The notes under the pieces were generated by a model that saw only the letters and a program-made list of their open reading frames with translations, ran no database searches and was not told the DNA's origin. A stretch of DNA of 64,000 nt from a virus: positions 10,485 to 74,484 of IMG/VR virus record IMGVR_UViG_3300042904_000196; one strand, 5' to 3'. Of this stretch, positions 903 to 64,000 are shown piece by piece. The position numbers were made by a program, and so were the translations under genes. The stretch's first letter is position 1, and every line of letters starts with the position of its first letter.

Positions 903-931
903 TTGATTCCCGAATCAATCAGGCCATTTTT
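894..931 (+). terminator. 16-bp perfect hairpin plus T-tract, centred on the dispersed palindrome
   Basis: ATGGCCTGATTGATTC-CC-GAATCAATCAGGCCAT followed by TTTT. Confidence 0.6.
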
Positions 932-942
932 GGAGGTAGCTA

Positions 943-1527
943 ATGGATGATTTCAAAGTTGTATTTGAAATCCCTGACCTGCGAGGGCTTGAAGAGGAAC
1001 TGCGGCGTGAAGCCAAAGAAGTATGGCTTTGGGCCATTGAGCAGGTGATACGTAATATTGTGCAGGATGCCCCGGACGGTATTCCTGTATTCACTGGACG
1101 CACAAAACAGACTCTCCAAGCGGCTATCGATGAACTGGTTGCTTTGGGTGGTGATGATATTCCTCTGACGTATATGTATAATCCGAACTACACCTTCACG
1201 TTTCTTATGAATCGTAAGGCGTATAAGGATTCTGTATATGGTCCGCCAGAGGATGCTGAGCTTAGATTTGATAACGATATCTTTTTGACATCGTTCACGT
1301 TGAACATACCTGATGAAGTCTTCGATGTTCAAAACATCGTAGGTGATTCCGGGCACAAAAACCCGCAACGATATGAGCCTTGGGACTTGTTGACGCAAGC
1401 CCGGCTAGATATTATTGACGAGCTTAAAGATCGTCTTGTTGCTTTGTATAAAAAGAGGGTACGTTCGCGGCTCAAGATACGTGTACGTGACACTCGTTCA
1501 CCACTTCGCAGGTCTTATGAGGAATAA
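943..1527 (+). CDS. Virion morphogenesis protein, HK97 gp10-like (tentative)
   Basis: GGAGG RBS; IPVFTGRTKQTL resembles the PVxTGxLxxSI motif. Confidence 0.4.
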   Translation: MDDFKVVFEIPDLRGLEEELRREAKEVWLWAIEQVIRNIVQDAPDGIPVFTGRTKQTLQAAIDELVALGGDDIPLTYMYNPNYTFTFLMNRKAYKDSVYGPPEDAELRFDNDIFLTSFTLNIPDEVFDVQNIVGDSGHKNPQRYEPWDLLTQARLDIIDELKDRLVALYKKRVRSRLKIRVRDTRSPLRRSYEE

Positions 1528-1529
1528 CG

Positions 1530-5813: not shown

Positions 5814-5823
5814 GGAGATTCCC

Positions 5824-6749: not shown

Positions 6750-6752
6750 GCT

Positions 6753-16757: not shown

Positions 16758-16920
16758 TTTGTTCCTCTTTGATTCTGAAATCATTATTGAGTTTTGGAAT
16801 GTTGACCCCGATGAACTTACCGGGCTCGTATTCAATATAACGCATATTACCAAGCTCAAGGGCGTACATAAGAATTTTCTTGTCGCCGTCTTTCAGAGAT
16901 TTGAGAATTTCTCTTAACAT
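16708..16920 (-). CDS. Hypothetical protein
   Basis: ATG coupled to the primase stop (TAATG); MLREILKSLKDG... Confidence 0.5.
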   Translation of the reverse strand: MLREILKSLKDGDKKILMYALELGNMRYIEYEPGKFIGVNIPKLNNDFRIKEEQNGWSIGTLREATNGNG

Positions 16921-19616
16921 TATTCTGCACCCGGACGCAGCCAACCCAACTTATCGACAACCCAAGGCTTGCCAGCAGGAGTCTCTGCTTTGAAGCTTAT
17001 GTTGCCGATGTAGTTTTGGCCTCCATCGAAGGTCGCCTTACCGTAGGGGTATTGTGGCGGTAAGGATTCCTTAATCTTTTTGCGGGTCCATGCCGGTACG
17101 TCTTCCGGTTCAAGGGTAAGCACAAAGCGTTCTGAAAATTCCAAGAACGAGATACTAGCTCCCTTGATTGGGAAACAGTTTTCATCAATAAAGCGTTCAA
17201 GCTCTGTCCTGTTGCCTGCTTGAACCTGAAACTTCATATCGGACATGATAACAGGCAAATTCAATCTATCATTGCTCTTGGGCAACTCTAATCGTAACAA
17301 GTCGGCCAAAAGGTCCGGGGCTTCCTTTTCAAGGAGAGGAAAAAGGTCTTTCTTAGGAATCAAATTGAGCATATCCAGTGGAGGCACATGCAACATCGTT
17401 ATCCGGGTGTCGCCGGGGAAGATTGGACAGTACCGGTGGTCATTCGCACATTGCACCCAGTGGGTACAATTGGGAACATGAAAGGGGGCCTGATACATGT
17501 GTCTAACGTTGAGATGCTTACTGGTGACCCAGTCTTTGATTCGGTTGTAAGCAACCTTATTTCCCTGAAGGTCGGTTTCTTCAACAACACATAGGACCGC
17601 ATGTTGCAACTCTCCGTTGAAGCCGCTTGAATTCGTAAGAGCCAAGTCCGCACGCTGATATCCACTTGTGACGAGAAGTGCAATAGCTTCGTGAAAAGAT
17701 GACTTTCCAGTATTTTGCTCGCCATAGAAAAAGAGATATGGGAGCGGTTCAAGAGGTTCTTTGAGAAGTGAAGCGAGCCAACATTTAAGATAATCCGCTC
17801 CGGTGGCAAGTCCGTTAGCTTGGCACCAAGGGTGAGATTTGATTGCGGAATCAATTGACTGTCCGCAATGCTGAAAGATACGGGACCATGTGGGGTAGGA
17901 GTAACTGTCTTTACCCACAGAAGGGAGGAAGCGTAACTGAGCTGCGTTTCGATTCCATTTTCTATCTCCGGGGTACTCGGGTTGAAAAGGCCGATTAACG
18001 AGTTGCCAGCAACGCATAACGGAAGCACCGAGAATATCCTTAATTTGCCCGGCGTCTTTTCCCATGTAGTTGAGGGCATCCTTAACATTGTCTTTAGACT
18101 CGTTATGCCATTCTCCGGTTTTATTGAGATACCATCCAAAGTCTTCTCCTTTTTCGGTAACCACGTGACGGAGCAAGTCGTCGGTATTTTCTACCTCGGA
18201 CTCGGTACTCGGGGTGACACTCATACGTTCTATACGTGACCAAAAACCTTTCTTCTCAAGGTAGCCTTCCATCTCTGATGGGGCATCCTTGTCGGAGGCT
18301 TCGATCTTAAAAATCAAACGGCCATCTTTGTGCTGGCTCAACATAGCGGATCGGTGTTCCAACTTTTTGGGATAGGGAATCTTGACGCCTAGGGCTTTAG
18401 CGGCTTGCTCGGCTTTGGTGACGGAGGGGAACACAAAATTGCCCTTTTCATCCTCGACGCCTGAAAACGATCTGCAAGCGGTTCGGAAGTCGGGGTCAAC
18501 ATTATAAAGACACCGGGTCCATCCAGAAGTGTCCTGATCCCATGTGGTAGCTTCGGCCACACCACGAGTATGACGCCGGATTGACCATCCGCCCTTACGC
18601 AACGGGAAAGCGAAACAGTTCTGGTCTGATCCTCGCTCGGTTCCTTGGGCAAGGGTGTCAAAGATTCCTCGCAAGCCGAGTTCACTGTGTGCCCGCTTGA
18701 GGTCGGCTGTATGACAGACGAGCATGTTCCGGTCACTGTCCCACCAGAAAAGGCAGTTTTCTTTTTGAAGCCAGACAATAAGAGCCTTATGTTCTTCATC
18801 GCGTTGGAGAATCGTTTGCTGACCACAGACAAGATCAAAGTCAGTCACCTCTTTATCATTTGATTCCGGCATCAAAGATGTCGTTGCACGCTTACGCTTA
18901 TTGGTAACAACGCCAATATGGTCTTTCCAGTTAAGCGGAACCTGCGTCAAAGGGACGCCTTCCTTAATAACTTTCAGACCTTCGGGGTTGTTCAGCATCT
19001 TGCGATGCCACACCCACATATTGCCGCCGCACGTATCCACCTTAGCGAGGAAGTCGTAGCCCGTTAAAGCGCTCAGGTGCCCCAAAATTGATCGGGCAAG
19101 GGCTGCGTGCTCAGTGTGATTACTCGTTGGTACAGGAGGATCGAGGGTGACATATAGATGTAGCCCTTTACCACCTGTAGATCGTCTGACCGTGATCCAT
19201 GGAATTGATGTGACGGCAGACTGAACGGCACCCAATTCTTCCGTGGTGAGCTTTTTCTCGTGTTTGTCAGAATGGCCTGTAATAGCGTCGAAGTCGTAAG
19301 CCACCCAACGGGAAGCGCGTTCTCGCCAATTCCAGCCAGTGAGTCCGATACCTTCAACATGCTTCTCCAAATCGAATTTGATTTCGGAATCAGTATACTC
19401 AGGTTCGCTGGCCGCGTTCCAAGGGATTCTGAAAGCCTTCCACGTGGTGAGCCCGTCAGAGTATCCCCGCCACACGCGGCCATTAAATTCACCTGTGACC
19501 ATTTCTCCGTTATCTTGTGCGACATTCACCTGACATTCCATACCTAGATTGTATGCGTCTGCCAACGGTGAATAGTGTTTCAGGAAGCGTTGTACAGCTT
19601 CACTACGTGTAGGCAT
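16920..19616 (-). CDS. Primase-helicase (AEP/PrimPol N-terminus plus SF3/D5-like helicase)
   Basis: YDFD and RRSTGGKGLHLY primase motifs; Walker A GEQNTGKS, Walker B VVEE, IFPGDTRI. Confidence 0.88.
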   Translation of the reverse strand: MPTRSEAVQRFLKHYSPLADAYNLGMECQVNVAQDNGEMVTGEFNGRVWRGYSDGLTTWKAFRIPWNAASEPEYTDSEIKFDLEKHVEGIGLTGWNWRERASRWVAYDFDAITGHSDKHEKKLTTEELGAVQSAVTSIPWITVRRSTGGKGLHLYVTLDPPVPTSNHTEHAALARSILGHLSALTGYDFLAKVDTCGGNMWVWHRKMLNNPEGLKVIKEGVPLTQVPLNWKDHIGVVTNKRKRATTSLMPESNDKEVTDFDLVCGQQTILQRDEEHKALIVWLQKENCLFWWDSDRNMLVCHTADLKRAHSELGLRGIFDTLAQGTERGSDQNCFAFPLRKGGWSIRRHTRGVAEATTWDQDTSGWTRCLYNVDPDFRTACRSFSGVEDEKGNFVFPSVTKAEQAAKALGVKIPYPKKLEHRSAMLSQHKDGRLIFKIEASDKDAPSEMEGYLEKKGFWSRIERMSVTPSTESEVENTDDLLRHVVTEKGEDFGWYLNKTGEWHNESKDNVKDALNYMGKDAGQIKDILGASVMRCWQLVNRPFQPEYPGDRKWNRNAAQLRFLPSVGKDSYSYPTWSRIFQHCGQSIDSAIKSHPWCQANGLATGADYLKCWLASLLKEPLEPLPYLFFYGEQNTGKSSFHEAIALLVTSGYQRADLALTNSSGFNGELQHAVLCVVEETDLQGNKVAYNRIKDWVTSKHLNVRHMYQAPFHVPNCTHWVQCANDHRYCPIFPGDTRITMLHVPPLDMLNLIPKKDLFPLLEKEAPDLLADLLRLELPKSNDRLNLPVIMSDMKFQVQAGNRTELERFIDENCFPIKGASISFLEFSERFVLTLEPEDVPAWTRKKIKESLPPQYPYGKATFDGGQNYIGNISFKAETPAGKPWVVDKLGWLRPGAE

Positions 19617-19957: not shown

Positions 19958-20107
19958 AAGTGATTCCCGGAATCAAAAGTAACCTTTGAAACGCATAAAA
20001 TTCGCATTTGTCAATCTTCGGTTGACGGAATCAAATCAAATTCGCATTTGTCAATTGCGAAATTGCGGAATCGAATCAAACAGTTCAGTACAGCTTGGCC
20101 CTTCACC

Positions 20108-20124
20108 TATACTACGCTCAAAAG
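20108..20124 (-). promoter_or_regulatory. Shared box CTTTTGAGCGTAGTATA, oriented toward the primase operon
   Basis: Reverse complement of TATACTACGCTCAAAAG; same box at 20352 (+) and 57992 (+). Confidence 0.6.
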
Positions 20125-20175
20125 GTGCCTTTTTGCCGCGAAAATCCATAATTCGTAATTATAAAATTAAATTCC

Positions 20176-20253
20176 CCTTACTCTAACCATATTTTCTTTT
20201 TTTTTTTTTTTTTCTAAAAACATAATATAGGTATAATGTCGAGATTCACAATT
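20176..20253. repeat. Copy A of a ~78-bp long-range inverted repeat with T17 tract
   Basis: Reverse complement matches 55038-55114 with only a few differences. Confidence 0.9.
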
Positions 20254-20351
20254 GGGGAGATTGACACGTGCGAATTTGGCCCTCGCGCGCGTGTTCCTTA
20301 TAGGTGGCGGTTTTCCGGAAAATTCTTTTGACCCTATTGGCACGTCAGAGG

Positions 20352-20368
20352 CTTTTGAGCGTACTATA
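20352..20368 (+). promoter_or_regulatory. Shared box CTTTTGAGCGTACTATA upstream of the ParB-1/replication operon
   Basis: Three near-identical copies, each at an operon head. Confidence 0.6.
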
Positions 20369-20461
20369 TAATGCTAGGGGACTATACTGATTGTACTATT
20401 TGATTCGATTCCTTCACTTCTCCGGATTGATTCCGGAATCAGCCCAACGGAGTTACTTTTC

Positions 20462-21424
20462 ATGTCCGAAACCACCAACCTCATTAATGTTCCTGTTGAC
20501 AGCATCATTGAAAGCGAATCTTCCTTGCGTCCCGTGCAACGCGACACCGAAGCCTATCAGGGGCTTGTGGCGTCGATGCGTGAGAAGGGTTTCATCGGGT
20601 CCATCAGCGTGCGTCCCGTGAAGACCATCGTTGACGGTGTCACCGTTGACCGTTACGAAATCCTTGACGGTCTGCACCGCTGGAATGCCGCTCGTGATAC
20701 TGGAATCAAAACGATCCCTTGCTTCGTCAAGCAGATGGACAAGGCAGACGTTCTTGAGTGGCAGATGATGGCGAACTATCACAAGGTTGATACGAAGCCC
20801 GCCGCGTATGCCCAGCAGCTTCAGAAGCTCATTGTTCTGAATCCCGCCCTGACCCTGAACGAAATCGCCACGAAGCTCGGTATGAGCACGGCGACCATCA
20901 TGCAGCGTCTTGACCTGCTCAAGCTTTCTGATTCGATTCAGAAGCTTGTCGATGATGGCAAGATCACCCTGACCAATGCCCACACCCTGAGCAAGCTTCC
21001 CGAAGAGGAACAGGCTGGCTTTGTTGATTTTGCGGTCGGCAAGTCCCCGAAGGAATTCGCGGAGCTTGTCAACAATCGCAAGAAGGAAATCAACGAGGCT
21101 CGCAAGGCGGGCAAGGTTGCCGGTCCCCCGGTGTTTGCTCCCATCTCGATCCTGCGTAAGAAGGATGAACTCGAAACCGAGTTGAACAATCCCATCGTGG
21201 TTATGTCCCTCATTGAAGAGAGCGGCGTCAACACGATCAAGGGTGCGGTTCAGATGGCGATTTCGTATGCCCTTAGCCTCGATCCCCGTACCATTGCCAC
21301 GAAAAAGGCGGAGTGGGAGCAGCGTGAGAAGGATAAGGCAGCCGACGCCGAGAAGCGGAAGACTGAACGTGAGGCCAAGAAAATCAAGGATGCACAGGAA
21401 TTCCTTGCCAAGGCCGGTGTCTAA
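20462..21424 (+). CDS. ParB/Spo0J-family protein (ParB-1)
   Basis: LVASMREKGFIGSISVRP...YEILDGLHRWNAA (GxxR box), followed by HTH LNEIATKLGMSTATIMQRLDLLKL. Confidence 0.88.
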   Translation: MSETTNLINVPVDSIIESESSLRPVQRDTEAYQGLVASMREKGFIGSISVRPVKTIVDGVTVDRYEILDGLHRWNAARDTGIKTIPCFVKQMDKADVLEWQMMANYHKVDTKPAAYAQQLQKLIVLNPALTLNEIATKLGMSTATIMQRLDLLKLSDSIQKLVDDGKITLTNAHTLSKLPEEEQAGFVDFAVGKSPKEFAELVNNRKKEINEARKAGKVAGPPVFAPISILRKKDELETELNNPIVVMSLIEESGVNTIKGAVQMAISYALSLDPRTIATKKAEWEQREKDKAADAEKRKTEREAKKIKDAQEFLAKAGV

Positions 21425-21429: not shown

Positions 21430-21461
21430 GGCCCCGGACAGCGATGTCCGGGGCCTATTTT
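21430..21461 (+). terminator. Intrinsic terminator
   Basis: GGCCCCGGACA-GCGA-TGTCCGGGGCC followed by TATTTT. Confidence 0.8.
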
Positions 21462-21504
21462 ACCTATTTTGATTCTGGAATCATTTCATCTCTAAGGAAA
21501 TCAC

Positions 21505-22149
21505 ATGACTGACATTGCTCTCGTTGACCTCGGTGCCCTCGGTTTGCCTAACTCTGAAGAATTTGCTCTTGTTTCGACTGCTGGTGGAGCCTATCTGCCA
21601 CGCCTCCAACTCGGTGGCTCGACATCGGACGCCGTGAAGCAACGCAAAGTGCAGATGGGCAACCACTATCTCGTTGAGAACGATACGCCTACCGATTTGG
21701 GGAGTTCCGTTGATGTTATCGTGTTGGGCTGGATGTCCAAAGCTTTGGACGTTTCTGGTGCCAAGCCGATTTCAAATTTCGATGTCCACAGCGAAGGGTT
21801 CAAGAAAATTCAGGCTAAGTCTGCTGTCAAGGATAGCAACTGCATGTATGGCCCGAGCTATCTGGTGTACATTCCTTCGGTCGGCAAGTTCGCGGAGTAT
21901 TTCATGTCGTCCAAGACGGCACGGAAAGAATCCAAGAATATGCAAGCCCGACTGGGGATGGCCGCTACCCTTAGCTCTGAACTGATTGAAACCACGGAAT
22001 ATTCATGGTTTGGTCCGATTATTCGGCCGTGTTCGACGCCCATTACTCCCCCGAGCAGTGCGGACATCGTATCGGCCAATGAGAAGTTCCAAGCACAGAA
22101 GCAACAGGTTGTGGAAACCGTTGCACCTGCCTCTGACCGCAAACGCTAA
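21505..22149 (+). CDS. Conserved replication-region protein (possible ssDNA-binding protein)
   Basis: AAGGA RBS and its own terminator; LPRLQL...S..V...G pattern. Confidence 0.4.
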   Translation: MTDIALVDLGALGLPNSEEFALVSTAGGAYLPRLQLGGSTSDAVKQRKVQMGNHYLVENDTPTDLGSSVDVIVLGWMSKALDVSGAKPISNFDVHSEGFKKIQAKSAVKDSNCMYGPSYLVYIPSVGKFAEYFMSSKTARKESKNMQARLGMAATLSSELIETTEYSWFGPIIRPCSTPITPPSSADIVSANEKFQAQKQQVVETVAPASDRKR

Positions 22150-26943: not shown

Positions 26944-27196
26944 GGCTGCTCAGGTAGCCAAATGCATCGAGAAAGTGTTTCCTGAATTGCGGGTAGTGAT
27001 TATGGTCCAACCCCAAGGGGTAGGCGGACCGATGGTTATTATCCATGGTGGTGGCAAAGGTTATTCCTTTGCAATACGAGTTAAGTTGAATGATTTTGAA
27101 CGATTACCGCCAAAGGCGGTTGCTGAAGCGTTCATAGAAAAGTTGACCCAAGTGCAAAGGGAAAAGAAACATGGGACCGTTCTTCGAAGAAGATGA
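26897..27196 (+). CDS. Hypothetical protein
   Basis: ORF filling the gap in the operon. Confidence 0.5.
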   Translation: MRTPLLITRITLDKVKAAQVAKCIEKVFPELRVVIMVQPQGVGGPMVIIHGGGKGYSFAIRVKLNDFERLPPKAVAEAFIEKLTQVQREKKHGTVLRRR

Positions 27197-27317
27197 CGAG
27201 CTTTTCGACACTGGCGAATTCACCGATCCTGCTTTAGGTGAAGATTTTGAGGATGATGAAGAGGATTTTGATGAATTTGATGAAGATGATATTGATGATG
27301 AAGAGTTCGAGTTCTAA
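27171..27317 (+). CDS. 48-aa hyper-acidic peptide (candidate DNA mimic)
   Basis: MGPFFEEDDELFDTGEFTDPALGEDFEDDEEDFDEFDEDDIDDEEFEF; 27 D/E, 9 F, no K/R. Confidence 0.6.
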   Translation: MGPFFEEDDELFDTGEFTDPALGEDFEDDEEDFDEFDEDDIDDEEFEF

Positions 27318-27331: not shown

Positions 27332-28171
27332 ATGAGCAACGCTACTATCGCCACCATGAACATTCCTATCGCCGATATTGACATCGACGATAATTTCAAT
27401 TGCCGCGGTAAGCTGCTTCCGATTGATGTCGAGGAGCTTGCGAAAGACATTCAGGCGAATGGGCAACATCAGCCTGTTGTCGTGATGCCTTACAATGAGT
27501 CCGAGAAGCTTATCAAAGGCAAGAGTTACAAACTCCTTGCGGGCTTCCGGCGTACCTACGCTCATATCATTCTGAAGTTGCCGACCGTGTTGGCAGTTGT
27601 CAAGAATCACATGAGTGATATCGAAGCACGCCTATTGAATTTGTCTGAAAATCTGAAGCGTGAAGACCTGAACATTCTCCAAGAGGCCAAAGCTCTTGAA
27701 GCGCTTATGTATGCTGGCGTACCCCGTGAAGAGGTCGCCCGTAGGGTAGGTAAATCGGGCGGCTGGGTTCAGGCACGCTGGGCATTGCTCACGCTTCCCA
27801 AGGATATTCAGGATGTTGCGGCTGCCGGTCTGCTTAATCAGTATCAACTGAAGCGGTTAGCAGGTATCCGCAAGCCCGAGGAACTGTATGCTACGGTGAA
27901 GCAGATTAAGACACGGCTTGCCAATGCACAGAGCTTGAACATCATCCAACGTAAGCCGCCCAAGAAACACGAGAAAAAGAAACGCACGACGACCGAGATT
28001 GCGAACATGCGTAACTATATCTTGGACAACATCGGTTCTAATCCTTATTCTCGTGCTTTGGCGTGGGCTGCCGGTGGCACCTCCGACAAGGAACTGGAAG
28101 ACGCTATCCGTGAAACGCATCCGGCATTTGTGATTCCGGAACCAAAAGAGGTCGAACTAACCCACGAGTAA
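27332..28171 (+). CDS. ParB/Spo0J-family protein (ParB-2)
   Basis: FNCR...ELAKDIQANGQHQPVVV...YKLLAGFRRTYA, ENLKREDL, HTH REEVARRVGKSGGWVQAR. Confidence 0.9.
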   Translation: MSNATIATMNIPIADIDIDDNFNCRGKLLPIDVEELAKDIQANGQHQPVVVMPYNESEKLIKGKSYKLLAGFRRTYAHIILKLPTVLAVVKNHMSDIEARLLNLSENLKREDLNILQEAKALEALMYAGVPREEVARRVGKSGGWVQARWALLTLPKDIQDVAAAGLLNQYQLKRLAGIRKPEELYATVKQIKTRLANAQSLNIIQRKPPKKHEKKKRTTTEIANMRNYILDNIGSNPYSRALAWAAGGTSDKELEDAIRETHPAFVIPEPKEVELTHE

Positions 28172-34116: not shown

Positions 34117-34152
34117 GGGCCATCTGATTCCGGAATCAGGTGGCCCTTTTTT
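34117..34152 (+). terminator. Intrinsic terminator built around the palindrome
   Basis: GGGCCATCTGATTCC/GGAATCAGGTGGCCC followed by TTTTTT. Confidence 0.8.
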
Positions 34153-34164: not shown

Positions 34165-34806
34165 ATGCGTGTAGTAACGGGATGCAACCACAAGCTTGAA
34201 TGGCTGCTCGATCCATGGATATTCTTTTTTAGGAAGTTCAACCCAACCATGCCTTTTACATTTGCTGACTTTGGCCTCACCATTGAAGGAAAGGAAAAGG
34301 TCGAGGCAGCGGGTGGCGTTATCGTGAATCCCGGTGCCCCTAAGGGTACCCACGTGTATGACCTGCTTATGCTGAAGCCTGTAGCCATGCTTATGATACC
34401 GGGTGATAGTGGCCTGTGGCTGGACATTGATGCACAGGTCCATGGGGACGTTAGTGCTTATGACAAGTTCAAGTTTGCTGCACAACTCAACACAGGCACG
34501 TGGAACAGCGGCATATTCAAGTACGTTAAGCATCCCGTGATGGATCTGTGGGCAAACCTTAACCGTAAGGATGGTGAGCACGATGAGCATGTCTTCCTCC
34601 GAGCAACCAAGCAGCACCCCGTGTACGTGCACAGACTTAACTGGCGATGGGCGGGTAATTGGAAGAACATCCACCGAAATGGATCGCTTTGCACGCATTG
34701 GCTCGGCAAATCAGGGAAGCTGTACTTCCGAAAGCTATATGATTCAGCCAAACAGGTGGTCGTGTATGCCGACAGCCCTAGCGATCCTACTGGGTTCAAC
34801 ATTTGA
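34165..34806 (+). CDS. GT-A fold glycosyltransferase-like protein
   Basis: LKP...WLDIDA (DxD), WNSG, DEHVF, LNW, HWLG. Confidence 0.65.
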   Translation: MRVVTGCNHKLEWLLDPWIFFFRKFNPTMPFTFADFGLTIEGKEKVEAAGGVIVNPGAPKGTHVYDLLMLKPVAMLMIPGDSGLWLDIDAQVHGDVSAYDKFKFAAQLNTGTWNSGIFKYVKHPVMDLWANLNRKDGEHDEHVFLRATKQHPVYVHRLNWRWAGNWKNIHRNGSLCTHWLGKSGKLYFRKLYDSAKQVVVYADSPSDPTGFNI

Positions 34807-35179
34807 TTCCGTAATCAAAGCTATCGGGCATGATGGTTCCGATATCGTCCAACCTGAACTGCCTGAGCCTGATGGCAGGCGTGGCTTCCACCCCCAAGAG
34901 CTGATTAAGGCTGCCTACGATCATGGGTTCCACATGGTATGGGTTGAAGCCCAGCCAATATTCTTTCATGGTGGAAAGCTGATGCCGGTTAAGGTAGACC
35001 ACCTGCATAGAGTGTTTGATAAGACCCGCGGAATCGTGCTCGCTATCCGTGACGGTAAGCGTCACGCCTTTGCCAAGATTGATTCTCGAATCATTAACCC
35101 CACATTTGGGAAGGTCTGGTCGCTTCACGACTGGACCATCGAACACTATCTGTATATGATTCCCGGCATCAAAACGTGA
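34739..35179 (+). CDS. Papain-like (C39-type) cysteine peptidase-like protein
   Basis: MIQPNRWSCMPTALAILL (Q...C) and a downstream HAFA...INP. Confidence 0.5.
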   Translation: MIQPNRWSCMPTALAILLGSTFDSVIKAIGHDGSDIVQPELPEPDGRRGFHPQELIKAAYDHGFHMVWVEAQPIFFHGGKLMPVKVDHLHRVFDKTRGIVLAIRDGKRHAFAKIDSRIINPTFGKVWSLHDWTIEHYLYMIPGIKT

Positions 35180-35229
35180 TTTTGCGGAATCGAATCAAAT
35201 TCGACCATCAAAATATTTTGGAAAGTGAC

Positions 35230-35258
35230 TTGCGAAACCATATAGAAGGTGGTAACCT
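35230..35258 (+). promoter_or_regulatory. Sigma70-type promoter
   Basis: TTGCGA, 17-nt spacer, TAACCT with TG extension. Confidence 0.5.
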
Positions 35259-35338
35259 ACTGGTGGGGAACGGAGCGGTGATTCGGGAATCAAATTTGAT
35301 TCGATTCCTGAGTTATTCGTTTTGATTCCCGGCATCAA

Positions 35339-35353
35339 TGTTCTTTGACAATT
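35339..35353 (+). promoter_or_regulatory. boxA-like antitermination element
   Basis: TGTTCTTTGACAATT resembles rrn boxA TGCTCTTTAACA. Confidence 0.5.
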
Positions 35354-35359
35354 GAGAGT

Positions 35360-35860
35360 AAGATTGGAACCGAAACCTAGCCTAGGCTAGGATAGGGAAG
35401 TCCCCCATACCTGTGATATGGTGGTAGAATGAGAATGAAAATCGCCGTGACCCGCAAGGTTGATTCCGGAATCATACCGTCGTGATGACGTTAATGAAGT
35501 CTGGAAAAGATACGGTTTGAAGTCATAAGTGCACCATGCAGTGATTGCTGGGAAGCACGCCAGATGGATAACACGTGGTAGCGAAAAGTAAAATGCTTCT
35601 ATCGAGCCCTTGCACAGGATTGGAACAGGGATGCAACCTGATTCCGGAATCAACGTTAGTAACAGGTTTCAATCGAGTAACTAATCAAACGTGAAGTAAA
35701 GCGGTGTGACATGGCTTAACGAGCCCCCGGCAAACGCTGCACCCCGAAGGGTGGCACATTGTGATACACGTTTGGCTACCAAGGTAATGAGTAGCCTGAA
35801 GATGATGTTACGTTGTGAGCAACCCGTTGGGTTGTGTGTGGTTTGCAACCACAGATCGCA
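35360..35860 (+). ncRNA. Large structured ncRNA, ROOL-like (boundaries approximate)
   Basis: About 600-nt gap in a gene-dense genome with many hairpins; segments AATGAGAATGAAAATCGCCGTGACCCGCAAGGTTG, TCGTGATGACGTTAATGAAG, ATAAGTGCACCATGC and ATAACACGTG resemble ROOL as recalled from memory. Confidence 0.55.
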
Positions 35861-35882
35861 GAATTTGATTCGCAGAATCAAA

Positions 35883-35950
35883 GAGCACGTAGTTCTCGGA
35901 GATAACTCCCCTAACGGGGAACGGTGCGGGTTCGACTCCCGCCGTGTTCT
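35883..35950 (+). tRNA. tRNA-like element lacking a canonical anticodon loop
   Basis: Acceptor GAGCACG/CGTGTTC, T-arm GCGGG-TTCGACT-CCCGC, D stem GTT/AAC; anticodon arm TCCCC-TAAC-GGGGA has a 4-nt loop. Confidence 0.6.
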
Positions 35951-35976
35951 TTTCCCTCTTTTTAATGGAGATTATT

Positions 35977-38611: not shown

Positions 38612-39169
38612 ATGAAAATGATTCCAGTATCAGATTACCGTACAGACAAGCTGATGAGCGACTACGAACGCCGCCGCGACACCGTGAAGAAAACGAGCTT
38701 CGCGATACCTTGCATGGAAGCCTTGAACCTCCTAGGTAGGTACGGGCCTCTGCTTGAAGTCGGAGCAGGTACGGGTTACTGGGCCAACCTGCTGCGGCTC
38801 AGGGGCGTGGACATCTATCCCACGGAGCCTGTTCAGGTGGGTAACAAGTACGGCTTCGAAAAAGCGTACCTGCCCATGGAACAGTTGACTGGCGTTGAAG
38901 CCGTTAACAGGTACCGAGACAGAAATCTGTTCATGTGCTGGCCCTCGTATCTGGCAACGTGGCCGTATCATACGCTGAAGTGGTTCAAGCGATTGTCCAC
39001 CATGAACCATGTCATTTACATTGGCGAGGGCCGGGGTGGGTGTTGTGCGGACTACAATTTCTTCCACATGCTCGAATACGACTTTACAGTTAAGGAAGAA
39101 TTGGACATTCCTACGTGGGACTATATTCACGACTCCCTTACGGTCTATGAGAGGAAGGTGCTTCGGTGA
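38612..39169 (+). CDS. Class I SAM-dependent methyltransferase-like protein
   Basis: LLEVGAGTGYWA motif I; LFMCWP; VIYIGE. Confidence 0.75.
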   Translation: MKMIPVSDYRTDKLMSDYERRRDTVKKTSFAIPCMEALNLLGRYGPLLEVGAGTGYWANLLRLRGVDIYPTEPVQVGNKYGFEKAYLPMEQLTGVEAVNRYRDRNLFMCWPSYLATWPYHTLKWFKRLSTMNHVIYIGEGRGGCCADYNFFHMLEYDFTVKEELDIPTWDYIHDSLTVYERKVLR

Positions 39170-55795: not shown

Positions 55796-55825
55796 GGTCC
55801 GGTGATTCCGGAATCAGAGCGCGAT

Positions 55826-56058: not shown

Positions 56059-56296
56059 CACAACGCGAAGCGAATCCCCCGGAAAGGATTCACCATGCAA
56101 TACGAAATCACTGTAACGTCTACCCTGAATGGTGAAGTTATCTCCACTCACACCATTACCGCCACACCCGAAGAAATGGTAGATATTGTGTCTACCCTTG
56201 GCTCCCTTTGCTGTGCACTGTTTGGTCCCGTCTGCTTGTCCGTTGTTCCTCTCTGCCAGAACTAACCACGTTTCGGGGGATTCGCTTCGCGTTGTG
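56059..56296. repeat. 23-bp perfect inverted repeats flanking a small ORF
   Basis: CACAACGCGAAGCGAATCCCCCG (56059-56081) and its reverse complement (56274-56296). Confidence 0.85.
56095..56265 (+). CDS. 56-aa hypothetical protein
   Basis: AAAGGA RBS; MQYEITVTSTLNGEVISTHT... Confidence 0.5.
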   Translation: MQYEITVTSTLNGEVISTHTITATPEEMVDIVSTLGSLCCALFGPVCLSVVPLCQN

Positions 56297-56366
56297 CCCA
56301 ACGTGCCTTGCAATGTTTGCAAGGCAAATTTTCCCTAACTGCTCCATTGGAGCAAAGGATTCTCTC

Positions 56367-57569
56367 ATGTTGTTTTCTTCTCTCTATCTGTCCGCCATCC
56401 GTACCATGTTTGCCGCTGACACAGCCAACGTCGGAGCGGCAGCCGCGAAGGAAATCGCGGAAGTTCTGCCGATGCCGGGAAACGCCAAACGCACGACGAT
56501 TGATTTCGACAAAATTCGCCGTGTGCACAACGTTCGGACGGTTCGCATGGAAGAGCAGAACGCTAAGCGGTTGCTCCCCAGCATCCGCGACAATGGCTTT
56601 CTTCCGGCGTATCCACTGATGGTTGAGGAAATGGCCGATGGCACATACAACTTGCTGGCAGGGCACGGTAGGACTGCGGCATTGCGGCTCTTGACGAAAG
56701 AGCAACGTGCTACGGCTCTTGCCGAGTTCCATGGCAAGGTCCCCGCCATCGTCTACAAAAACCTCACTGAGGTTGGGCGGGCAGCGGTTCGCTCGCACGA
56801 CTTCACTGCCGCCAGCGACAAAATGAAGGGCGACAAGTGGACTGAGTACCAAATGATTAAGGATTTTATTCTTGCTGGTGGCAAGGATAAAACCCGGAAC
56901 GGCCGGGTCATTGGTGACGCCACCATCGCCGCCTTTATGGGTTGGCTGGACGGCAAGGGTGAACCGAACCGCAATCGCGTCTACGGATTCCGCAAGCTTC
57001 ACGAGTTGTCCGCCAAAGTTCCCGGGCTTGAGGATGAGTACGCGAAGAAATGGGACACTTCCCTCCCTGAGAATGAGCGGCTCACGGCTTTGCCCGACAA
57101 GGCAATCGACAAGCTTTTCCCGCAGCTTAGCCTTGACATGACCGGGGAAACGGCTCGCGAAATGTTCGCGGGCATGATCTCCGGCGACCCCGAATCGGTG
57201 GAAGTGGACACAAAACCACATTCCCTCGACCCGAAAGCGGCTCGCGACTTGGCTAAGAAGCCGTATCCGGCTCGCGTGATTCGGCTCATTCTCGCCTTGA
57301 CGCACCAGCCGACCGGGAAGGATAAGCCGGTCGAATCGGTGGACGACGTCGTTGCAGAAATCGCGGCTCTTGAGACTGCGGCTCTTGCTGCGGGCGTCAA
57401 GGCTGAAGCCAAGGCAATCGCGGCTCATCGTCGCAAGCTTCAGCCGGAAACGCCCGTGCATCCTGCTACGTTGCTCGACAAGGCCCCTAGCGAGCCCGCC
57501 AACGAATCCGAACCGGCAAAGCCGGTTCGCGGTCGCAAGGCCCACGCAAAGGCCCACAGCAAGGCCTAA
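56367..57569 (+). CDS. Divergent ParB-N (sulfiredoxin/CTPase fold) protein (ParB-3)
   Basis: HNVR...LLPSIRDNGFLPAYPLMVEE...YNLLAGHGRTAAL; AAAGGA RBS; basic Ala/Lys-rich tail. Confidence 0.75.
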   Translation: MLFSSLYLSAIRTMFAADTANVGAAAAKEIAEVLPMPGNAKRTTIDFDKIRRVHNVRTVRMEEQNAKRLLPSIRDNGFLPAYPLMVEEMADGTYNLLAGHGRTAALRLLTKEQRATALAEFHGKVPAIVYKNLTEVGRAAVRSHDFTAASDKMKGDKWTEYQMIKDFILAGGKDKTRNGRVIGDATIAAFMGWLDGKGEPNRNRVYGFRKLHELSAKVPGLEDEYAKKWDTSLPENERLTALPDKAIDKLFPQLSLDMTGETAREMFAGMISGDPESVEVDTKPHSLDPKAARDLAKKPYPARVIRLILALTHQPTGKDKPVESVDDVVAEIAALETAALAAGVKAEAKAIAAHRRKLQPETPVHPATLLDKAPSEPANESEPAKPVRGRKAHAKAHSKA

Positions 57570-57624
57570 CGGCGAATCCCGCACCCCCTAGAGATTCCAG
57601 TAGCGGTTCAGCGTGGAATTGATG

Positions 57625-60590: not shown

Positions 60591-62245
60591 ACACAATTAG
60601 GCACCCTGATTATGACGCTGCCAATATGGACAGGTGGCGTCTGACCTACGAGGGTGGCAGACGGTTTGTCCAACGGTACCTTGTTAGATTTTCCCAACGT
60701 GAATCCCGGGCCGACTTCATCGATAGAAAGCGTATCACATACTGCCCGGCATTCGCCAAGGCAGCCGTGAACGAAGTAAAGAACAGCATCTTTCAGCGTA
60801 TCGCTGATGTCGTTCGCACTGGTGGCCCCGATAGTTACACTGAAGCCATCCTAGGTAGGAACCGAGGAGTTGACAAGAACGGCTCATCGATCCATGCATT
60901 TATCGGTAAGCAAGTCATCGTGGAGTTGCTTACCATGTCTCGCGTGGGCATTTTCGTTGACCGCCAGCGTTTTGAGGCAACCACCAAGGCGACCAAGTTA
61001 GACCATCCGTATTTGTATGTCTACAAGGCCGAAGACATTTTATCGTGGAACTACTCCGATGAAGGTGACCTTGAAGCCGTCCTACTCAAAGAGGTTACAG
61101 AGACTTTCGATCAAGAAACCGGTCTACCCTCGGGAACCATCGAAAGACTACGGTTTTTGAAGAAAACTGATTCCGGAATCAGTGTCAAAATCTTTGAGAA
61201 CAACACCTTGATCGACGAATTGACCCTGAACCTGAAAAAGATGCCCTTCATCCTACTCAGTATCAGTCAATCTCTCTTGGTGGACGTTGCTGACTACCAA
61301 GCTGCCCTGCTGAACATCGAATCTTCAGACTTAAATTACATTCTGAAGGCCAATTACCCGTTCTACACTGAACAGGTCGATGGAAAGGCCACTGGCACCC
61401 ACCTCAAGAAAGAAAATGCCGAGGAAGATTCTGAAATCACGACGGGTGCCCACCATGGACGCACCTATGGTAAGGATTTGGACCGTCCTGATTTTATTGC
61501 ACCCCCTACAGGGCCTATTGAAGCCTCGATGAAGAAACAGGAACAGATTAAGGCCGACATTCGGCTGCTAATCAACCTGTCTATCACGAATCTTCAGCCA
61601 AAAATGGCCTCGGAAGGCAGTAAAAAGCAAGATGATCGCACCTTGGAAGCCGGTCTAAGCTACATTGGCATGGAACTTGAGGGTGCCGAGCGTCAAATCG
61701 CCACAATCTGGTCGGAGTACGAAGGAAGCGACGAAGTCGCCACGATCAACTACCCGAAACAGTACACAATCAAGTCCGACGAGGAACGTCTCAAGGAAGC
61801 TAAAGAGCTTGAAGAACGTCTTCGGGCCATTCCGAGCGAAACATACAAGCGTGAAGTCGCTAAAATGATCGCCAATGTGATGCTCGGCACCAAAGTCACG
61901 TTTGATGTCATGGAAACCATCCACAAAGAGATCGATTCCACGAAGATTTTGACCACGGACCCGGATATCATCTTCCCCTCCTTGGAAAATAATGTCATAA
62001 CGTTCAAGGATGCTGCTGAAGCCCTTGGATTGCCCAATGATCCGGCCACCCTTGAGCAGGCCGCTAAGGATCACATGGAACGGGCTATGCGGATTGCCAA
62101 AGCACAAGCCTCACAGGACCCCGCAAACCGGGGTAACCCTGCGGGAAGTGCTAATGGCAAAGCCGGTAGCGATGAAAAGCGTGATTCGCGTGATAGTACC
62201 CTTGACCCCGAAACCAAACCAAAGGTCAGAGGTGATGGCAAATGA
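60587..62245 (+). CDS. Portal protein
   Basis: 552 aa after TerL; RHPDY...W...YEGG...YL...RE...F..R N-terminus. Confidence 0.85.
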   Translation: MNTIRHPDYDAANMDRWRLTYEGGRRFVQRYLVRFSQRESRADFIDRKRITYCPAFAKAAVNEVKNSIFQRIADVVRTGGPDSYTEAILGRNRGVDKNGSSIHAFIGKQVIVELLTMSRVGIFVDRQRFEATTKATKLDHPYLYVYKAEDILSWNYSDEGDLEAVLLKEVTETFDQETGLPSGTIERLRFLKKTDSGISVKIFENNTLIDELTLNLKKMPFILLSISQSLLVDVADYQAALLNIESSDLNYILKANYPFYTEQVDGKATGTHLKKENAEEDSEITTGAHHGRTYGKDLDRPDFIAPPTGPIEASMKKQEQIKADIRLLINLSITNLQPKMASEGSKKQDDRTLEAGLSYIGMELEGAERQIATIWSEYEGSDEVATINYPKQYTIKSDEERLKEAKELEERLRAIPSETYKREVAKMIANVMLGTKVTFDVMETIHKEIDSTKILTTDPDIIFPSLENNVITFKDAAEALGLPNDPATLEQAAKDHMERAMRIAKAQASQDPANRGNPAGSANGKAGSDEKRDSRDSTLDPETKPKVRGDGK

Positions 62246-62658
62246 GCGTATACAAAGGTATGATATTGCCTGATGCCGAACCTACCGAGGCTGGTGGTTT
62301 GGCTATTTACGACAACTTCAAGGCTTTGATTGATGCCATATACCGCCTTGGACGCATAGGTGCAGTCACAACGGCAGGCACAATAACCGTTGACACTGCT
62401 GATTACTCGGTGGCCGATATTACAGCGAATGGAAACGTCACCCTTGGTACGTTTCAAAACTCTGTGAACGGCTACAAGCTTCTCTTGCGGATCAAGAACA
62501 ACACCGGCGGTGTTATCACAGTCACCCCTAACTCGGAAGTGCGATTTGGTTCTGGAATCACTTCGCTGTCAAACATCCCAAGCGGTAAAATAGGCTACAT
62601 TGGCTTGGTCTACACCGAATCTAAATGGGATGTTCTTCTGAACGAAGTGGGGTACTGA
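62242..62658 (+). CDS. Virion structural protein (beta-rich, fibre-like)
   Basis: GTITVD...ITANGNVTL...L.L.I...GG..VT pattern. Confidence 0.5.
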   Translation: MSVYKGMILPDAEPTEAGGLAIYDNFKALIDAIYRLGRIGAVTTAGTITVDTADYSVADITANGNVTLGTFQNSVNGYKLLLRIKNNTGGVITVTPNSEVRFGSGITSLSNIPSGKIGYIGLVYTESKWDVLLNEVGY

Positions 62659-64000
62659 TGATAAAGACAATCGGTAGTGGTGGTAACTATGCTACCATCC
62701 AAGACGCCTATGACGATTTGGCGAATCAGGTTGACACGACTCTTACGTGGCGTCTCAAAGCAGGAACCCATGCAGGTGTAAACGGTCTTGAGCTTGCCAA
62801 TTTTCAATGTACCAATTTGATTCTGGAATCAGACATTGGTGTTGTGAAGCCTACCGGTCAGATTATGGCTGACGATGTTGGTCAGGCTATTGTGACCGGT
62901 TTGCTCAACTTCGTTGATACCGCTGGAACAGGCGGACCTTCATCGTTCATAGCACGCAACTTCCAGCTTGGTTCATCTTCGACACGCGGACGCCTTTCAT
63001 GTACAGGTGGCGGTGAAACTGGTGTTGGCTCTGGTGCCATGGATACTATCACTTATGATGGTATCTTTGCTTACGATAATCAGGCACAGTCGTCTGGTAC
63101 GGCAAATCTGATTTCGGTATTTGCAAATAACACCACAACGGCCACCATTCAAAACTGCGGAGCCATATCGACGGGCTCATTCACCGGTGGAACGAAACGC
63201 GGTATCTTGGCTAGTAACAGTGAAGGCACTGGTACGATCAACTTGTACCATAACAGCGTGTACACCGCTAACTTCACGCTCGGTATCGCTCGTAGTTATG
63301 CTGGTACACTGAACCTCGATGTTAGGAACTGTATAGCTGTAGGTTCGGCTACGTCGTCTGTTAGTTACGGAACCACGACAAGCAGTGGAACACTCAACCT
63401 AAATGGTTCTTCTTCAGGAAACCTTGGAAGTGACGCTGTTTGGGGTTCAACGGATTGCACAAGTAGCCTTGCAAGTGCGAGTGTTTTCTCTAACACGTCC
63501 ACGGGCTTAGCAATCTTGGTTAATGCTACAACAAAGCTCGCGGCAACGACCTCGCCCACCTCGTTGGACATTCTTGGACTTGAGCGTCCGCAACGTGGTC
63601 GGGTGTATGCTGGCTTGCAGTGTGCCCTTAGGTATTTTTTCCACGAGCATTTTGATTATTCAAATGGTGCCCTATACACGGTTAGTTCGGGTGTCTGGGA
63701 AACCATCGGCCCCGGACATGATGAGCCTCAAATAACGTCAAAGGCCATTGTTTCGACATCGGAACAAATTGAGTCCTTGGCGTGTATGTTGAGCAATTCT
63801 TACGTAACTGGCTTGCACTTCACTTTGCCGACGCTTGTTCGAGGCATCTTCAATAAGACCCTTGTAACAGACTCCTCAGGCGGTGGCGGTTGCGAATTCA
63901 CGTTTGGCGACCAGATGATCCTTGTGGGAACCCCCGAGGGTCGTCGCTGGTCCCTTGCTCTGTCCATCCCTGAAGGGTGGGGTGCTTCCAATGAAGCACG
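62658..64000 (+). CDS. Right-handed beta-helix (pectin lyase-like) virion protein, 3'-truncated by window
   Basis: TGATG coupling; MIKTIGSGGNYATIQDA; frame open to the window end by manual translation; DILGLERPQ...YAG cap motif; absent from the ORF track because there is no stop. Confidence 0.7.
   Translation, partial: MIKTIGSGGNYATIQDAYDDLANQVDTTLTWRLKAGTHAGVNGLELANFQCTNLILESDIGVVKPTGQIMADDVGQAIVTGLLNFVDTAGTGGPSSFIARNFQLGSSSTRGRLSCTGGGETGVGSGAMDTITYDGIFAYDNQAQSSGTANLISVFANNTTTATIQNCGAISTGSFTGGTKRGILASNSEGTGTINLYHNSVYTANFTLGIARSYAGTLNLDVRNCIAVGSATSSVSYGTTTSSGTLNLNGSSSGNLGSDAVWGSTDCTSSLASASVFSNTSTGLAILVNATTKLAATTSPTSLDILGLERPQRGRVYAGLQCALRYFFHEHFDYSNGALYTVSSGVWETIGPGHDEPQITSKAIVSTSEQIESLACMLSNSYVTGLHFTLPTLVRGIFNKTLVTDSSGGGGCEFTFGDQMILVGTPEGRRWSLALSIPEGWGASNEA

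Follow-up and report, generated by a model that had tools for sequence, protein, structure and literature searches.

What reads a 14-bp palindrome that recurs about once per kilobase along a phage genome, mostly within genes? The question arises from IMG/VR record IMGVR_UViG_3300042904_000196 (here G000), a contig of 74,484 bp, about 80% complete, from an uncultured tailed phage; the whole stretch of 64,000 nucleotides that was analysed is referred to below as the window. A first-pass annotation of this window had proposed that a phage ParB loads at the palindromes and coats the genome.

Selection on the palindrome array at the DNA level

The first-pass annotation had counted 30 exact copies of TGATTCnnGAATCA in the window, and this count is confirmed: exact matches to TGATTCNNGAATCA number 30 in the window, against none in 100 dinucleotide shuffles, and 32 across the whole contig. 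When up to two mismatches from the 14-bp palindrome TGATTCCGGAATCA are allowed, the window contains 69 sites, close to the 70-75 estimated initially, and the contig contains 78, with a mean spacing of about 0.94 kb; the chance expectation for the contig under this definition is approximately 0.24 (862 variants / 4^14 x 74.5 kb). Most copies had been placed inside coding sequences on both strands, and indeed 67 of the 78 sites lie entirely within greedy ORF calls, on both coding strands, where they are read in frame 1 (LIPES-like) or frame 2 (DSGI-like). At least 11 of the 78 are intergenic, whereas non-coding DNA makes up only about 3% of the contig. The details noted at stop codons also hold: two frame-0 copies begin with GGA (at 25831) and AGA (at 45808), and at 34804 and 45035 the TGA of the site supplies the real stop codon. 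In synonymous-codon shuffles that kept all proteins intact, the 78 sites fell to a mean of 20.6 (maximum, 27), and roughly half of the surviving sites lay in unshuffled DNA. Because of the excess over chance, the loss upon shuffling, and the use of two frames and both strands, we conclude that selection on the array acts at the DNA level, as had been claimed.

The gaps of 357-1576 bp reported for the region from 37.9 to 55.6 kb were reproduced, but the evenness of spacing varies with site definition and is only partly robust. Under the two-mismatch definition the coefficient of variation (CV) is 0.64, compared with 0.985 +/- 0.106 for random placement (P<5e-5), whereas under the strict definition TGAT-N6-ATCA it is 0.89 (P=0.18).

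Table 1. Coordinates of the array, selected sites, and genes in the G000 window
Feature	Position	Strand	Remarks
Dispersed array of the 14-bp palindrome	904..62831	.	Scan with at most two mismatches
Intergenic site	904..917	.	Lies within a longer 26-bp palindrome
Primase/helicase (DUF5906)	16920..19616	-	Family marker; contains 3 sites
Divergent control region, primase operon / ParB1	19958..20461	.	AT-rich; run of 21 T; direct repeat of about 40 bp
Perfect palindrome	20428..20441	.	Candidate autoregulatory operator, 20 bp 5' of the ParB1 start codon
ParB1	20462..21424	+	320 aa; ParB N-domain, HTH_ParB, helical C-terminal region with a long final helix
Site between ParB1 and the SSB-like gene	21470..21483	.	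Preceded by the terminator-like hairpin that follows ParB1 (21430-21455), and followed by the SSB-like gene start
SSB-like neighbour of ParB1	21505..22149	+	Predicted OB-fold
ParB2	27332..28171	+	279 aa; ParB N-domain and HTH_ParB
Densest cluster	34804..35652	.	Five sites 178-276 bp apart
Third ParB-N-like protein (doubtful)	56208..57569	+	453 aa; just 5' of the terminase genes

Half-sites and variants accompany the palindrome in control regions (Table 1). The divergent control region upstream of ParB1 contains tandem half-sites TTGATTCGATTC at 20068 (-) and 20400 (+), together with a 15-bp variant site at 19961. A second control region, located at 35150-35340 inside the densest cluster, has inverted tandem half-sites at 35187 (-) and 35296 (+) and also 15-bp variant sites. 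The site at 34125-34138 has the same build as the one at the start of the array, with a longer palindrome around it.

An array that changes dialect within a phage family

The primase/helicase has 297 relatives in IMG/VR, which form a large uncultured family. Of 58 loci of primase relatives with a length of 8 kb or more, 36 have a strong palindrome, and in most of the family members examined a palindrome of this build occurs at high density, in one of at least ten dialects. These include TGAT-N6-ATCA, GATT-N5-AATC, TGAT-N5-ATCA, GATG-N4-CATC, TGAG-N6-CTCA, AGTT-N3-AACT, GTTT-N4-AAAC, GATA-N5-TATC, and GCTC-N4-GAGC, as well as CTTC-N3-GAAG in the locus L197. A syntenic 75-kb relative (G006) combines the dialect TGATTTTAWAATCA with homologues of all three ParB-like genes, and the CCGG centre of the G000 motif is unique in the family. 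Sites in the primase gene coincide across relatives of different dialects (121 coincidences versus 33 expected), and some of the three sites in the G000 gene are at such common positions. The array is a family trait, and its sites switch dialect in place, which supports the view that they make up a system specific to the lineage and co-evolving with the phage. About 17 loci that encode ParB1 (most of them also ParB2) have no strong palindrome by the k=4 test, some of these loci being short or having a TGAT-type palindrome under the threshold of that test. Canonical parS was found neither in G000 nor in its relatives.

ParB-family proteins and the candidate reader

Three ParB-N proteins had been annotated in the window, and two of them, ParB1 and ParB2, are true ParB-fold proteins with a helix-turn-helix (HTH) domain. 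Both score above the cut-off of PF02195 (46-49 bits for ParB1, 32-34 bits for ParB2), both match HTH_ParB (PF17762; E values 2.5e-11 and 9.6e-12, respectively), and both exceed the TIGR00180 cut-off of 58.45 (79.8 and 74.8). The third protein scores 19 bits against a Pfam ParB_N cut-off of 26.3 and has only weak matches to ParB-like PHROGs; no HTH was found in it, and no Pfam or NCBIfam family matched it at E<=0.01. An AlphaFold2 model of ParB1 (pLDDT 89) matches the CTP-bound structures of ParB, Noc, and KorB with E values of 1e-9 to 1e-11, including 7BNK, 7NFU, 6T1F, and KorB 8QA8 and 8QA9. The CTP motifs are canonical in ParB2 (AGFRR, ENLKREDL) and partial in ParB1, where DGLHR (Box II) and ANYHKVDT stand in place of GxxRxxA and ENxxR(E/D)xL; with one arginine of GxRR and the glutamate of ENxxR missing, CTP-driven clamping by ParB1 is uncertain. 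As in the first-pass annotation, no ParA was detected: neither PF13614 nor PF01656 was found in this contig of about 80% completeness. The gene content of the incomplete contig looks lytic (own polymerase, primase, RNR, and ligase), and it contains no tyrosine integrase.

In the ParB/Noc family, changes of specificity involve a small number of residues, located in the HTH and in the helix beside it (PMC7383237). The recognition helix of ParB1 varies across the family and is unique in G000 (MSTATIMQRL); the alignment with Caulobacter ParB spans the HTH and the next helix, and T175, M177, and H204 of ParB1 in G000, the phage with the CCGG centre, are all three unique in the family and correspond in position to the DNA-contact region of that protein (PMC7383237). 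Unusual dialects occur with unusual ParB1 helices (GATG with xGRL, TGAG with QRF, GTTT with MSSTQLAERM). Moreover, in 18 of 29 distinct relatives the 150 bp upstream of ParB1 contain a site in that phage's own dialect, compared with 14% predicted from site density, although this enrichment may partly reflect a large intergenic region; the corresponding figure for ParB2 is only 3 of 22. The core of the ParB2 recognition helix is nearly invariant family-wide, with one helix spanning six dialects, and ParB2 is unlikely to read the variable motif. The neighbouring SSB-like gene adjoins ParB1 in every examined relative whose fetched DNA extends that far, but its product is probably not the reader, because its predicted OB-fold is like that of single-strand DNA-binding proteins from phages.

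On the other hand, the expected covariation between the ParB1 helix and the motif is imperfect. L197, with its CTTC-N3-GAAG dialect, has the kind of ParB1 helix that is usual in TGATT-type relatives, and the helix of L339 (GCTC) is the same as in loci without a strong palindrome. Whether two loci have the same or different half-sites makes only a slight difference to their helix identity, about as much for ParB2 as for ParB1, and gene-tree congruence does not set ParB1 apart from ParB2, SSB, or primase. Besides a sigma-like protein, ParB1 and ParB2 are the only double-strand DNA-binding HTH proteins that we found conserved family-wide. Taken together, the sequence comparisons point to ParB1 as the best candidate reader.

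A docking-site model, its alternatives, and related systems

We see an even chance that the palindromes are loading sites for a phage-encoded dimeric DNA-binding protein, most likely the orphan ParB1. This docking-site mechanism is modelled by analogy on ParB/parS, Noc/NBS, and above all KorB/OB of plasmid RK2. A ParB1 dimer would read the palindrome via its HTH, then shut as a nucleotide-dependent clamp and diffuse along adjacent DNA. KorB is a CTP-dependent sliding clamp that travels up to about 1.5 kb from its sites (PMC11790492); with about one site per kilobase, on the order of this reported range, the entire phage chromosome would be continuously occupied. Promoter-proximal copies, among them the one that precedes ParB1, would serve as operators, and those inside genes would keep up genome-wide occupancy for silencing or timing, compaction, or the marking of phage DNA. 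We infer ParB1 as the reader, together with its nucleotide switch, its spreading, and the purpose of the occupancy. A bolder version, possible but on balance doubtful, is that an apparently lytic and entirely uncultured phage family loads its whole chromosome with an orphan, ParA-less ParB clamp through sites placed about every kilobase within its own genes, reader and sites co-evolving through at least ten dialects, and that the function is new for ParB, for example a condensate restricted to phage DNA (a replication or packaging compartment) or self-marking, rather than partition or simple promoter control. If ParB1 does read the sites, a lytic phage would be using a ParB-family protein genome-wide, at a site density far above that of KorB on RK2 or Noc on the chromosome, and the natural dialects would offer a ready series for how a DNA-binding protein and dozens of sites shift specificity jointly.

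The palindromes could instead be read by a protein other than ParB, either an exploited host DNA-binding protein or a small, fast-evolving phage HTH protein, with the ParB paralogues having a separate job, such as acting in replication or packaging at one site that has escaped recognition. We regard this as rather unlikely, but relatives without ParB that keep the motif had been named in advance as evidence against a ParB reader, and a partial case of this kind exists: G001, a complete 144-kb phage with terminal repeats and no ParB_N, has 38 copies of TTTGATTCCGGAATCAAA, all intergenic and with the same core, and its relatives at 81-99% identity retain the sites. It is not a relative of G000; no common protein was detectable except for a weak terminase match, and the nearly identical GC content (49.3% in G001, 49.5% in G000) is compatible with a shared host. 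As all of IMG/VR was searched for an exact 16-mer, one unrelated lineage with the same 7-bp half-site could be a coincidence. The imperfect covariation of ParB1 and the absence of a strong palindrome from some ParB-bearing relatives also favour another reader. Against a host protein, the 16-mer has at most one copy per bacterial genome or non-viral metagenome contig among the matches listed, and these non-viral matches are single and taxonomically scattered; a HIP1-like host repeat, another objection raised by the first-pass annotation, likewise finds no bacterial genome among the matches listed in which the motif is host-wide. Within the family, moreover, dialect follows phage lineage and sites change in place, and the conserved HTH repertoire described above also counts against another reader.

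It seems to us highly unlikely that a sequence-specific DNA-modifying or restriction-related enzyme acts on the sites and is recruited or activated at or around them by a ParB. Phage ParB-like proteins do activate thymine dioxygenases, but the activating ParBs lack a DNA-binding domain (PMC13229309), which ParB1 and ParB2 have. G000 has a homologue of thymidylate synthase (36184-37053) and an ORF with weak similarity to methyltransferases (38612-39169), whereas the Pfam scans that were run revealed no TET/JBP-type dioxygenase (PF12851 was not among the direct searches). The G000 motif does contain two GANTC sites (GATTC and GAATC), but GANTC is missing from most dialects of its relatives, such as TGATTTTAWAATCA, GATG-N4-CATC, and GTTT-N4-AAAC, and phages normally avoid rather than enrich palindromic restriction targets. 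We consider it extremely improbable that the sites serve replication or packaging directly, for example as Okazaki-spaced primase recognition sites or as condensation signals for packaging proteins. The roughly 1-kb spacing is similar to the length of bacterial Okazaki fragments, the array has its densest clusters in AT-rich control regions adjacent to the primase gene, and ParB1 itself belongs to the replication module, between the primase and SSB-like genes. However, no protein of the family is better conserved than the primase (48-55% identity), and yet the motif changes. The sites recognised by known primases are short and lack symmetry, and a dyad of 14 bp suggests a dimeric reader of the HTH type.

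For ParB1 as the reader, the nearest functional parallel is KorB/OB of the IncP plasmid RK2, where a protein with a ParB N-domain and an HTH is paired with a short palindrome repeated around the replicon at both promoter-near and distal positions. The intergenic sites of G000, including those 5' of ParB1 and of the SSB-like gene, fit this description, and the perfect site before the ParB1 start recalls the autoregulated KorB-OB regulon, the regulation being putative in G000. RK2 has about a dozen OB sites in 60 kb; in G000, by contrast, 74.5 kb hold 78 sites, the majority genic, and the genome is that of an apparently lytic phage with two HTH-ParB paralogues. Unlike in RK2, no IncC/ParA partner was found in the G000 contig, and no KorA- or TrbA-like clamp-locker was recognised in an unsystematic survey of its small ORFs. 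In sequence, the G000 ParBs are less similar to KorB than to chromosomal ParB or Noc, their closest relatives in both sequence and fold (TIGR00180; 6T1F, 7NFU, 7BNK). As an orphan ParB paralogue, Noc recognises many dispersed 14-bp palindromes, but its sites, about 70 in 4 Mb, are far sparser than the G000 array, whose context is a phage genome. By eye, no obvious N-terminal amphipathic membrane helix of the Noc type is present.

Dispersed sites are also known from mycobacteriophages. The stoperators of Cluster A are many dispersed repressor-binding sites, some away from promoters (PMC4351075); however, they lack symmetry, follow the direction of transcription, and are found in temperate phages, whereas the G000 sites are palindromic and accompany no detected integrase. 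We found no paper linking such palindrome arrays to ParB. Nevertheless, Corndog, a non-temperate Cluster O siphovirus of about 70 kb with more than 30 copies of a 17-bp dyad genome-wide, about one-third of them genic, encodes a protein with a ParB-like domain; its authors predicted a dimeric DNA-binding reader and drew no link to ParB (PMC4351075). Reading by ParB1 in G000, if true, would also account for these long-unexplained Cluster O arrays. The two phage families are unrelated. The Cluster O repeats are invariant and occur at about half the density of those in G000, where the copies are degenerate and mostly genic.

A dispersed palindrome under selection at the DNA level

The contig of G000, an uncultured tailed phage (IMG/VR record IMGVR_UViG_3300042904_000196), is linear, approximately 80% complete and 74,484 bp long. 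The first-pass annotation had described a palindrome dispersed along this genome, and our counts confirm it: there are 30 copies of TGATTCNNGAATCA in the window and 32 in the whole contig, and none appeared in 100 dinucleotide shuffles. Relative to the perfect 14-bp palindrome, TGATTCCGGAATCA, the contig contains 78 sites with at most two mismatches (16 perfect, 39 with one and 23 with two mismatches), 69 of them inside the window, against a calculated chance expectation of about 0.24 for the contig. The position matrix of the sites has weak added symmetry, a T before and an A after, giving a full element of tTGATTCCGGAATCAa.

With ORFs called greedily, 97% of the contig is coding and 67 of the 78 sites are wholly intragenic; at least 11 are intergenic, compared with the roughly 3% of the contig that is non-coding. 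Intragenic sites occur on both coding strands, and their translation is x-D-S-G-I-x in one frame and L-I-P-E-S in another. The avoidance of in-frame stops noted earlier is also seen here: the first T is substituted in the two frame-0 copies, at 25831 and 45808, and the TGA is the gene's own stop codon in the copies at 34804 and 45035. After synonymous-codon shuffling of each gene, which preserves every protein and codon usage, the count fell from 78 to an average of 20.6 sites (no more than 27 in any of 30 shuffles), and about half of these lie in unshuffled DNA. Because most sites are lost in these shuffles, selection on the palindromes acts at the DNA level, as had been proposed. A repeated protein motif was rejected as an explanation, since identical DNA appears within unrelated proteins in two frames and on both strands; a hairpin or terminator reading of the intragenic sites was rejected by reasoning, since the stem is not long enough and sites occur in either orientation and in two frames. 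An Rfam search of the window gave no match, and a literature search with the motif string gave chance matches only.

Even spacing, another part of the first description, depends on how a site is defined. Under the two-mismatch definition the spacing is more regular than random (CV 0.64 vs. 0.985 ± 0.106, with 0 of 20,000 simulations as low), whereas strict TGAT-N6-ATCA sites are not more even than random (CV 0.89, P=0.18). Among relatives, arrays of the GATG type are clearly even (CV 0.5-0.6, P≤0.0014) and that of G006, a syntenic 75-kb phage, is clustered. Evenness is real in some genomes and is not universal. The largest gap in the G000 array is the tape-measure gene (window 1530-5813), with a single degenerate site in 4.3 kb; the structural region of G006 is likewise site-poor.

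ParB-like proteins and control regions of G000

The phage is siphovirus-like, encoding a tape-measure protein, a gpA-type large terminase, a DUF5906 primase/helicase, an SNF2-like helicase and a family-A polymerase, together with a class II ribonucleotide reductase, a thymidylate synthase homologue, a UvrD-like helicase, a DNA ligase and a sigma-like HTH protein. In agreement with the earlier observation, ParA (PF13614, PF01656) was not found in the ~80% complete contig; neither was a tyrosine integrase.

Coordinates (window) of ParB-like proteins and associated features of G000
Feature	Position	Length	Remarks
Divergent control region, primase/ParB1	19958-20461		AT-rich, ~500 bp before ParB1
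ParB1	20462-21424	320 aa	ParB N-domain and HTH
SSB-like neighbour of ParB1 (orf214)	21505-22149		OB-type fold, resembles phage gp32-type SSBs (weak match)
ParB2	27332-28171	279 aa	ParB N-domain and HTH
Second such control region	35150-35340		Within densest site cluster
Third 'ParB'	56208-57569		Pfam score below threshold

Three ParB-N proteins had been reported, and two of them stand. Judged by their sequences, ParB1 and ParB2 are true ParB-family members: both passed TIGR00180 and match solved structures of ParB, Spo0J and Noc (E 1e-12 to 1e-18), while KorB was matched by ParB1 only, and weakly (E 6e-4). The third could not be upheld, as it falls short in Pfam and no HTH was detected in it by the Pfam and family profile search. 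ParB2 has the canonical motifs GFRR and ENLKREDL, and ParB1 has DGLHR and ANYHKVDT at the corresponding positions. In an AlphaFold2 model of ParB1 (40-sequence alignment, pLDDT 89), about 200 residues match CTP/CDP-bound ParB, Noc and KorB, and the C-terminal part is helical, ending in a helix of 43 residues. A 48-codon ORF (window 27171-27317) lies immediately upstream of ParB2. At window 56208-57584, two long ORFs on opposite strands overlap almost completely (453 aa on the plus strand and 440 aa on the minus strand), and family matches, weak and ParB-like, were obtained for the plus-strand product alone.

The control region between primase and ParB1 contains tandem half-sites paired in inverted orientation, along with a 15-bp variant site, a stretch of 21 T and a direct repeat of about 40 bp, and it may serve as a replication origin or as the main promoter region. 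Close to the second control region, approximately 550 nt of window 35330-35951 have no credible ORF and contain two perfect palindromes. Next comes a tRNA-like gene (35882-35951) that ARAGORN called with an undefined anticodon; Rfam gave no match to 35330-35951 at gathering thresholds.

Dialects in relatives and the candidate reader

Relatives in IMG/VR were recovered separately by terminase, ParB1 and primase, the primase alone giving 297. Among cultured phages, no primase relative was found by tblastn against 50,697 phage records, nor any DNA nearly identical to G000; this is a large phage family without any isolate. G006 shares its gene order with G000 from the structural genes as far as the replication module and encodes homologues of ParB1 (41%), ParB2 (39%) and the third protein (31%). 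It carries about 50 copies of TGATTTTAWAATCA, and TGATT-N4-AATCA has 58 matches in it within one mismatch, compared with 6.8 in shuffles.

We surveyed the dialect, that is, the form of the palindrome in a given relative, in the 58 loci of primase relatives that reach 8 kb or more, using an exact half-site of 4. In 36 of them a palindrome built on the same plan is strongly over-represented, at 0.4-2.4 per kb, in the forms TGAT-N6-ATCA, GATT-N5-AATC, TGAT-N5-ATCA, GATG-N4-CATC (as many as 38 copies in 22.6 kb), TGAG-N6-CTCA, AGTT-N3-AACT, GTTT-N4-AAAC, GATA-N5-TATC, GCTC-N4-GAGC and CTTC-N3-GAAG. ParB1 and the following gene are adjacent in every locus whose fetched DNA extends there, and ParB2 lies about 5 kb beyond in nearly all loci reaching that far. 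Whether related phages carry the motif had been posed as a check in the first-pass annotation: most of the loci surveyed have a palindrome of this build, and approximately 17 ParB1-bearing loci, most of them also with ParB2, have no strong palindrome by the exact 4-base half-site test, some being short and some having a TGAT-type palindrome under the threshold. In such loci (L336, L352, L353, L358, L359, L368, L373, L381, L385, L386, L390 and L391 are examples), the array may have been lost, or the motif may be invisible to this test.

In the primase gene, site positions in relatives of less than 70% identity coincide 121 times, against 33 by chance, and the coinciding sites include pairs of different dialects (e.g., TGATT-type and GATG-type at alignment column 689). 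Since these positions are common to different dialects, we infer that many sites are old and that the dialect changed in place, which calls for a reader that changed along with the sites.

ParB2 does not vary in this way. Its recognition-helix core, S-R-G-W-V-Q-V-R, is nearly identical across phages of six dialects, and it therefore probably reads something constant; no canonical parS was found in G000 or its relatives, and no other family-wide conserved palindrome was found as a possible ParB2 site. The SSB-like neighbour was rejected as the reader on account of its fold, predicted to resemble phage SSB, and is not a likely dsDNA reader. The ParB1 recognition helix varies at positions that, by alignment mapping, face DNA in Caulobacter ParB, for which they are established (PMC7383237). 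It is mostly K-S-x-x-W-[IV]-x-[QE]-R-L in TGATT-type phages, x-G-R-L in the GATG group, Q-R-F after H-[KR]-S in the TGAG group and M-S-S-T-Q-L-A-E-R-M in the GTTT phage. The G000 helix is M-S-T-A-T-I-M-Q-R-L, plus H at position 204; T175, M177 and H204 (Caulobacter numbering) are found within the family in G000 ParB1 alone, and G000 is also the sole member with a CCGG centre in its palindrome. In 18 of 29 distinct relatives, the phage's own dialect lies no more than 150 bp upstream of ParB1, compared with 14% predicted from density; the SSB-like gene has such a site in 12 of 26 and ParB2 in 3 of 22. The enrichment before ParB1 may be partly due to the large intergenic region.

The covariation of motif and helix, raised in the first-pass annotation, appears in the ParB1 helix and in the residues unique to G000, but it has exceptions. 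The clearest is L197 (IMGVR_UViG_3300037264_000938), where the dialect is CTTC-N3-GAAG and the ParB1 helix is of the ordinary TGATT type; this short palindrome is present there 10 times in 12.7 kb, where about 0.2 copies are expected. In L339 (GCTC), the ParB1 helix is one that also occurs in loci without a strong motif. Pairwise helix-versus-motif statistics were set aside as weak for both ParBs: helix identity is only slightly higher in pairs with the same half-site, about equally for ParB1 and ParB2. Gene-tree congruence cannot discriminate either, as the four trees track dialect equally well (label changes: ParB1 10, ParB2 9, SSB 9, primase 12).

Proposed ParB1 docking, a possible different reader and known systems

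The interpretation that a phage ParB loads at these sites is partly supported, by the ParB1 helix and the upstream sites; the imperfect covariation and a phage without ParB, G001, weaken it. As the most likely mechanism, to which we give an even chance, ParB1 would dock at the palindromes in a KorB-like arrangement, and docked ParB1 would lead to occupancy of the whole phage genome; a biological purpose for such occupancy can only be conjectured. The best working parallel is KorB and the OB operators of RK2: this CTP-dependent clamp is loaded at a palindrome, from which it can slide as far as 1.5 kb (PMC11790492). In sequence, the nearest relative is Noc, a protein with dispersed sites, and the closest phage precedent is in Cluster O mycobacteriophages, which have an unexplained 17-bp dyad repeat and a ParB-like protein, not connected by the authors (PMC4351075). 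Recent surveys describe many orphan phage ParBs, with no mention of arrays like these (PMC12704722). The ParB-like proteins that activate thymine dioxygenases of phages have no DNA-binding domain (PMC13229309).

The main rival, which we consider rather unlikely, is a different reader of the palindromes, possibly a host protein. It draws on G001 (IMGVR_UViG_3300031950_000001, loci L042-L049). This complete phage of 144,055 bp, unrelated to G000, has terminal repeats and came from a scan of 2.9 million IMG/VR viral contigs with an exact 16-mer string. G001 has 38 copies of TTTGATTCCGGAATCAAA, 33 of them perfect and all 38 intergenic, mostly between A-runs and T-runs just ahead of gene starts and often past terminator-like hairpins; its relatives at 81-99% identity retain the sites. 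It contains no ParB_N domain (PF02195) and, by protein search and profile comparison, no ParB1 or ParB2 homologue; the ParB1 DNA-binding profile gave weak generic HTH matches only, and no proteins are common to G000 and G001 beyond a weak terminase match. Either the two phages have a common reader, perhaps from the host, or their readers are unrelated and came independently to the same half-site. Coincidence is not negligible, because all these contigs were searched for exactly this string, while the nearly identical GC content of the two phages keeps a host factor alive as the rival. Against it, no bacterial genome among the matches listed has the motif more than once. A host-wide repeat appears unlikely from the 16-mer scans of genomes and metagenomes, which gave, among the matches listed, single scattered matches plus relatives of G001.

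Among the weak matches to the ParB1 DNA-binding profile is a small HTH ORF of G001 (125211-125492; helix GVSEATALRRI; E 0.002). A 1-kb metagenome contig (L288, PVBE011616918.1) carries four tandem copies of ATTGATTCCGGAATCAAT at positions 43-124 with a 22-bp period; these copies have the same core, and their arrangement resembles that of a centromere or an operator array.
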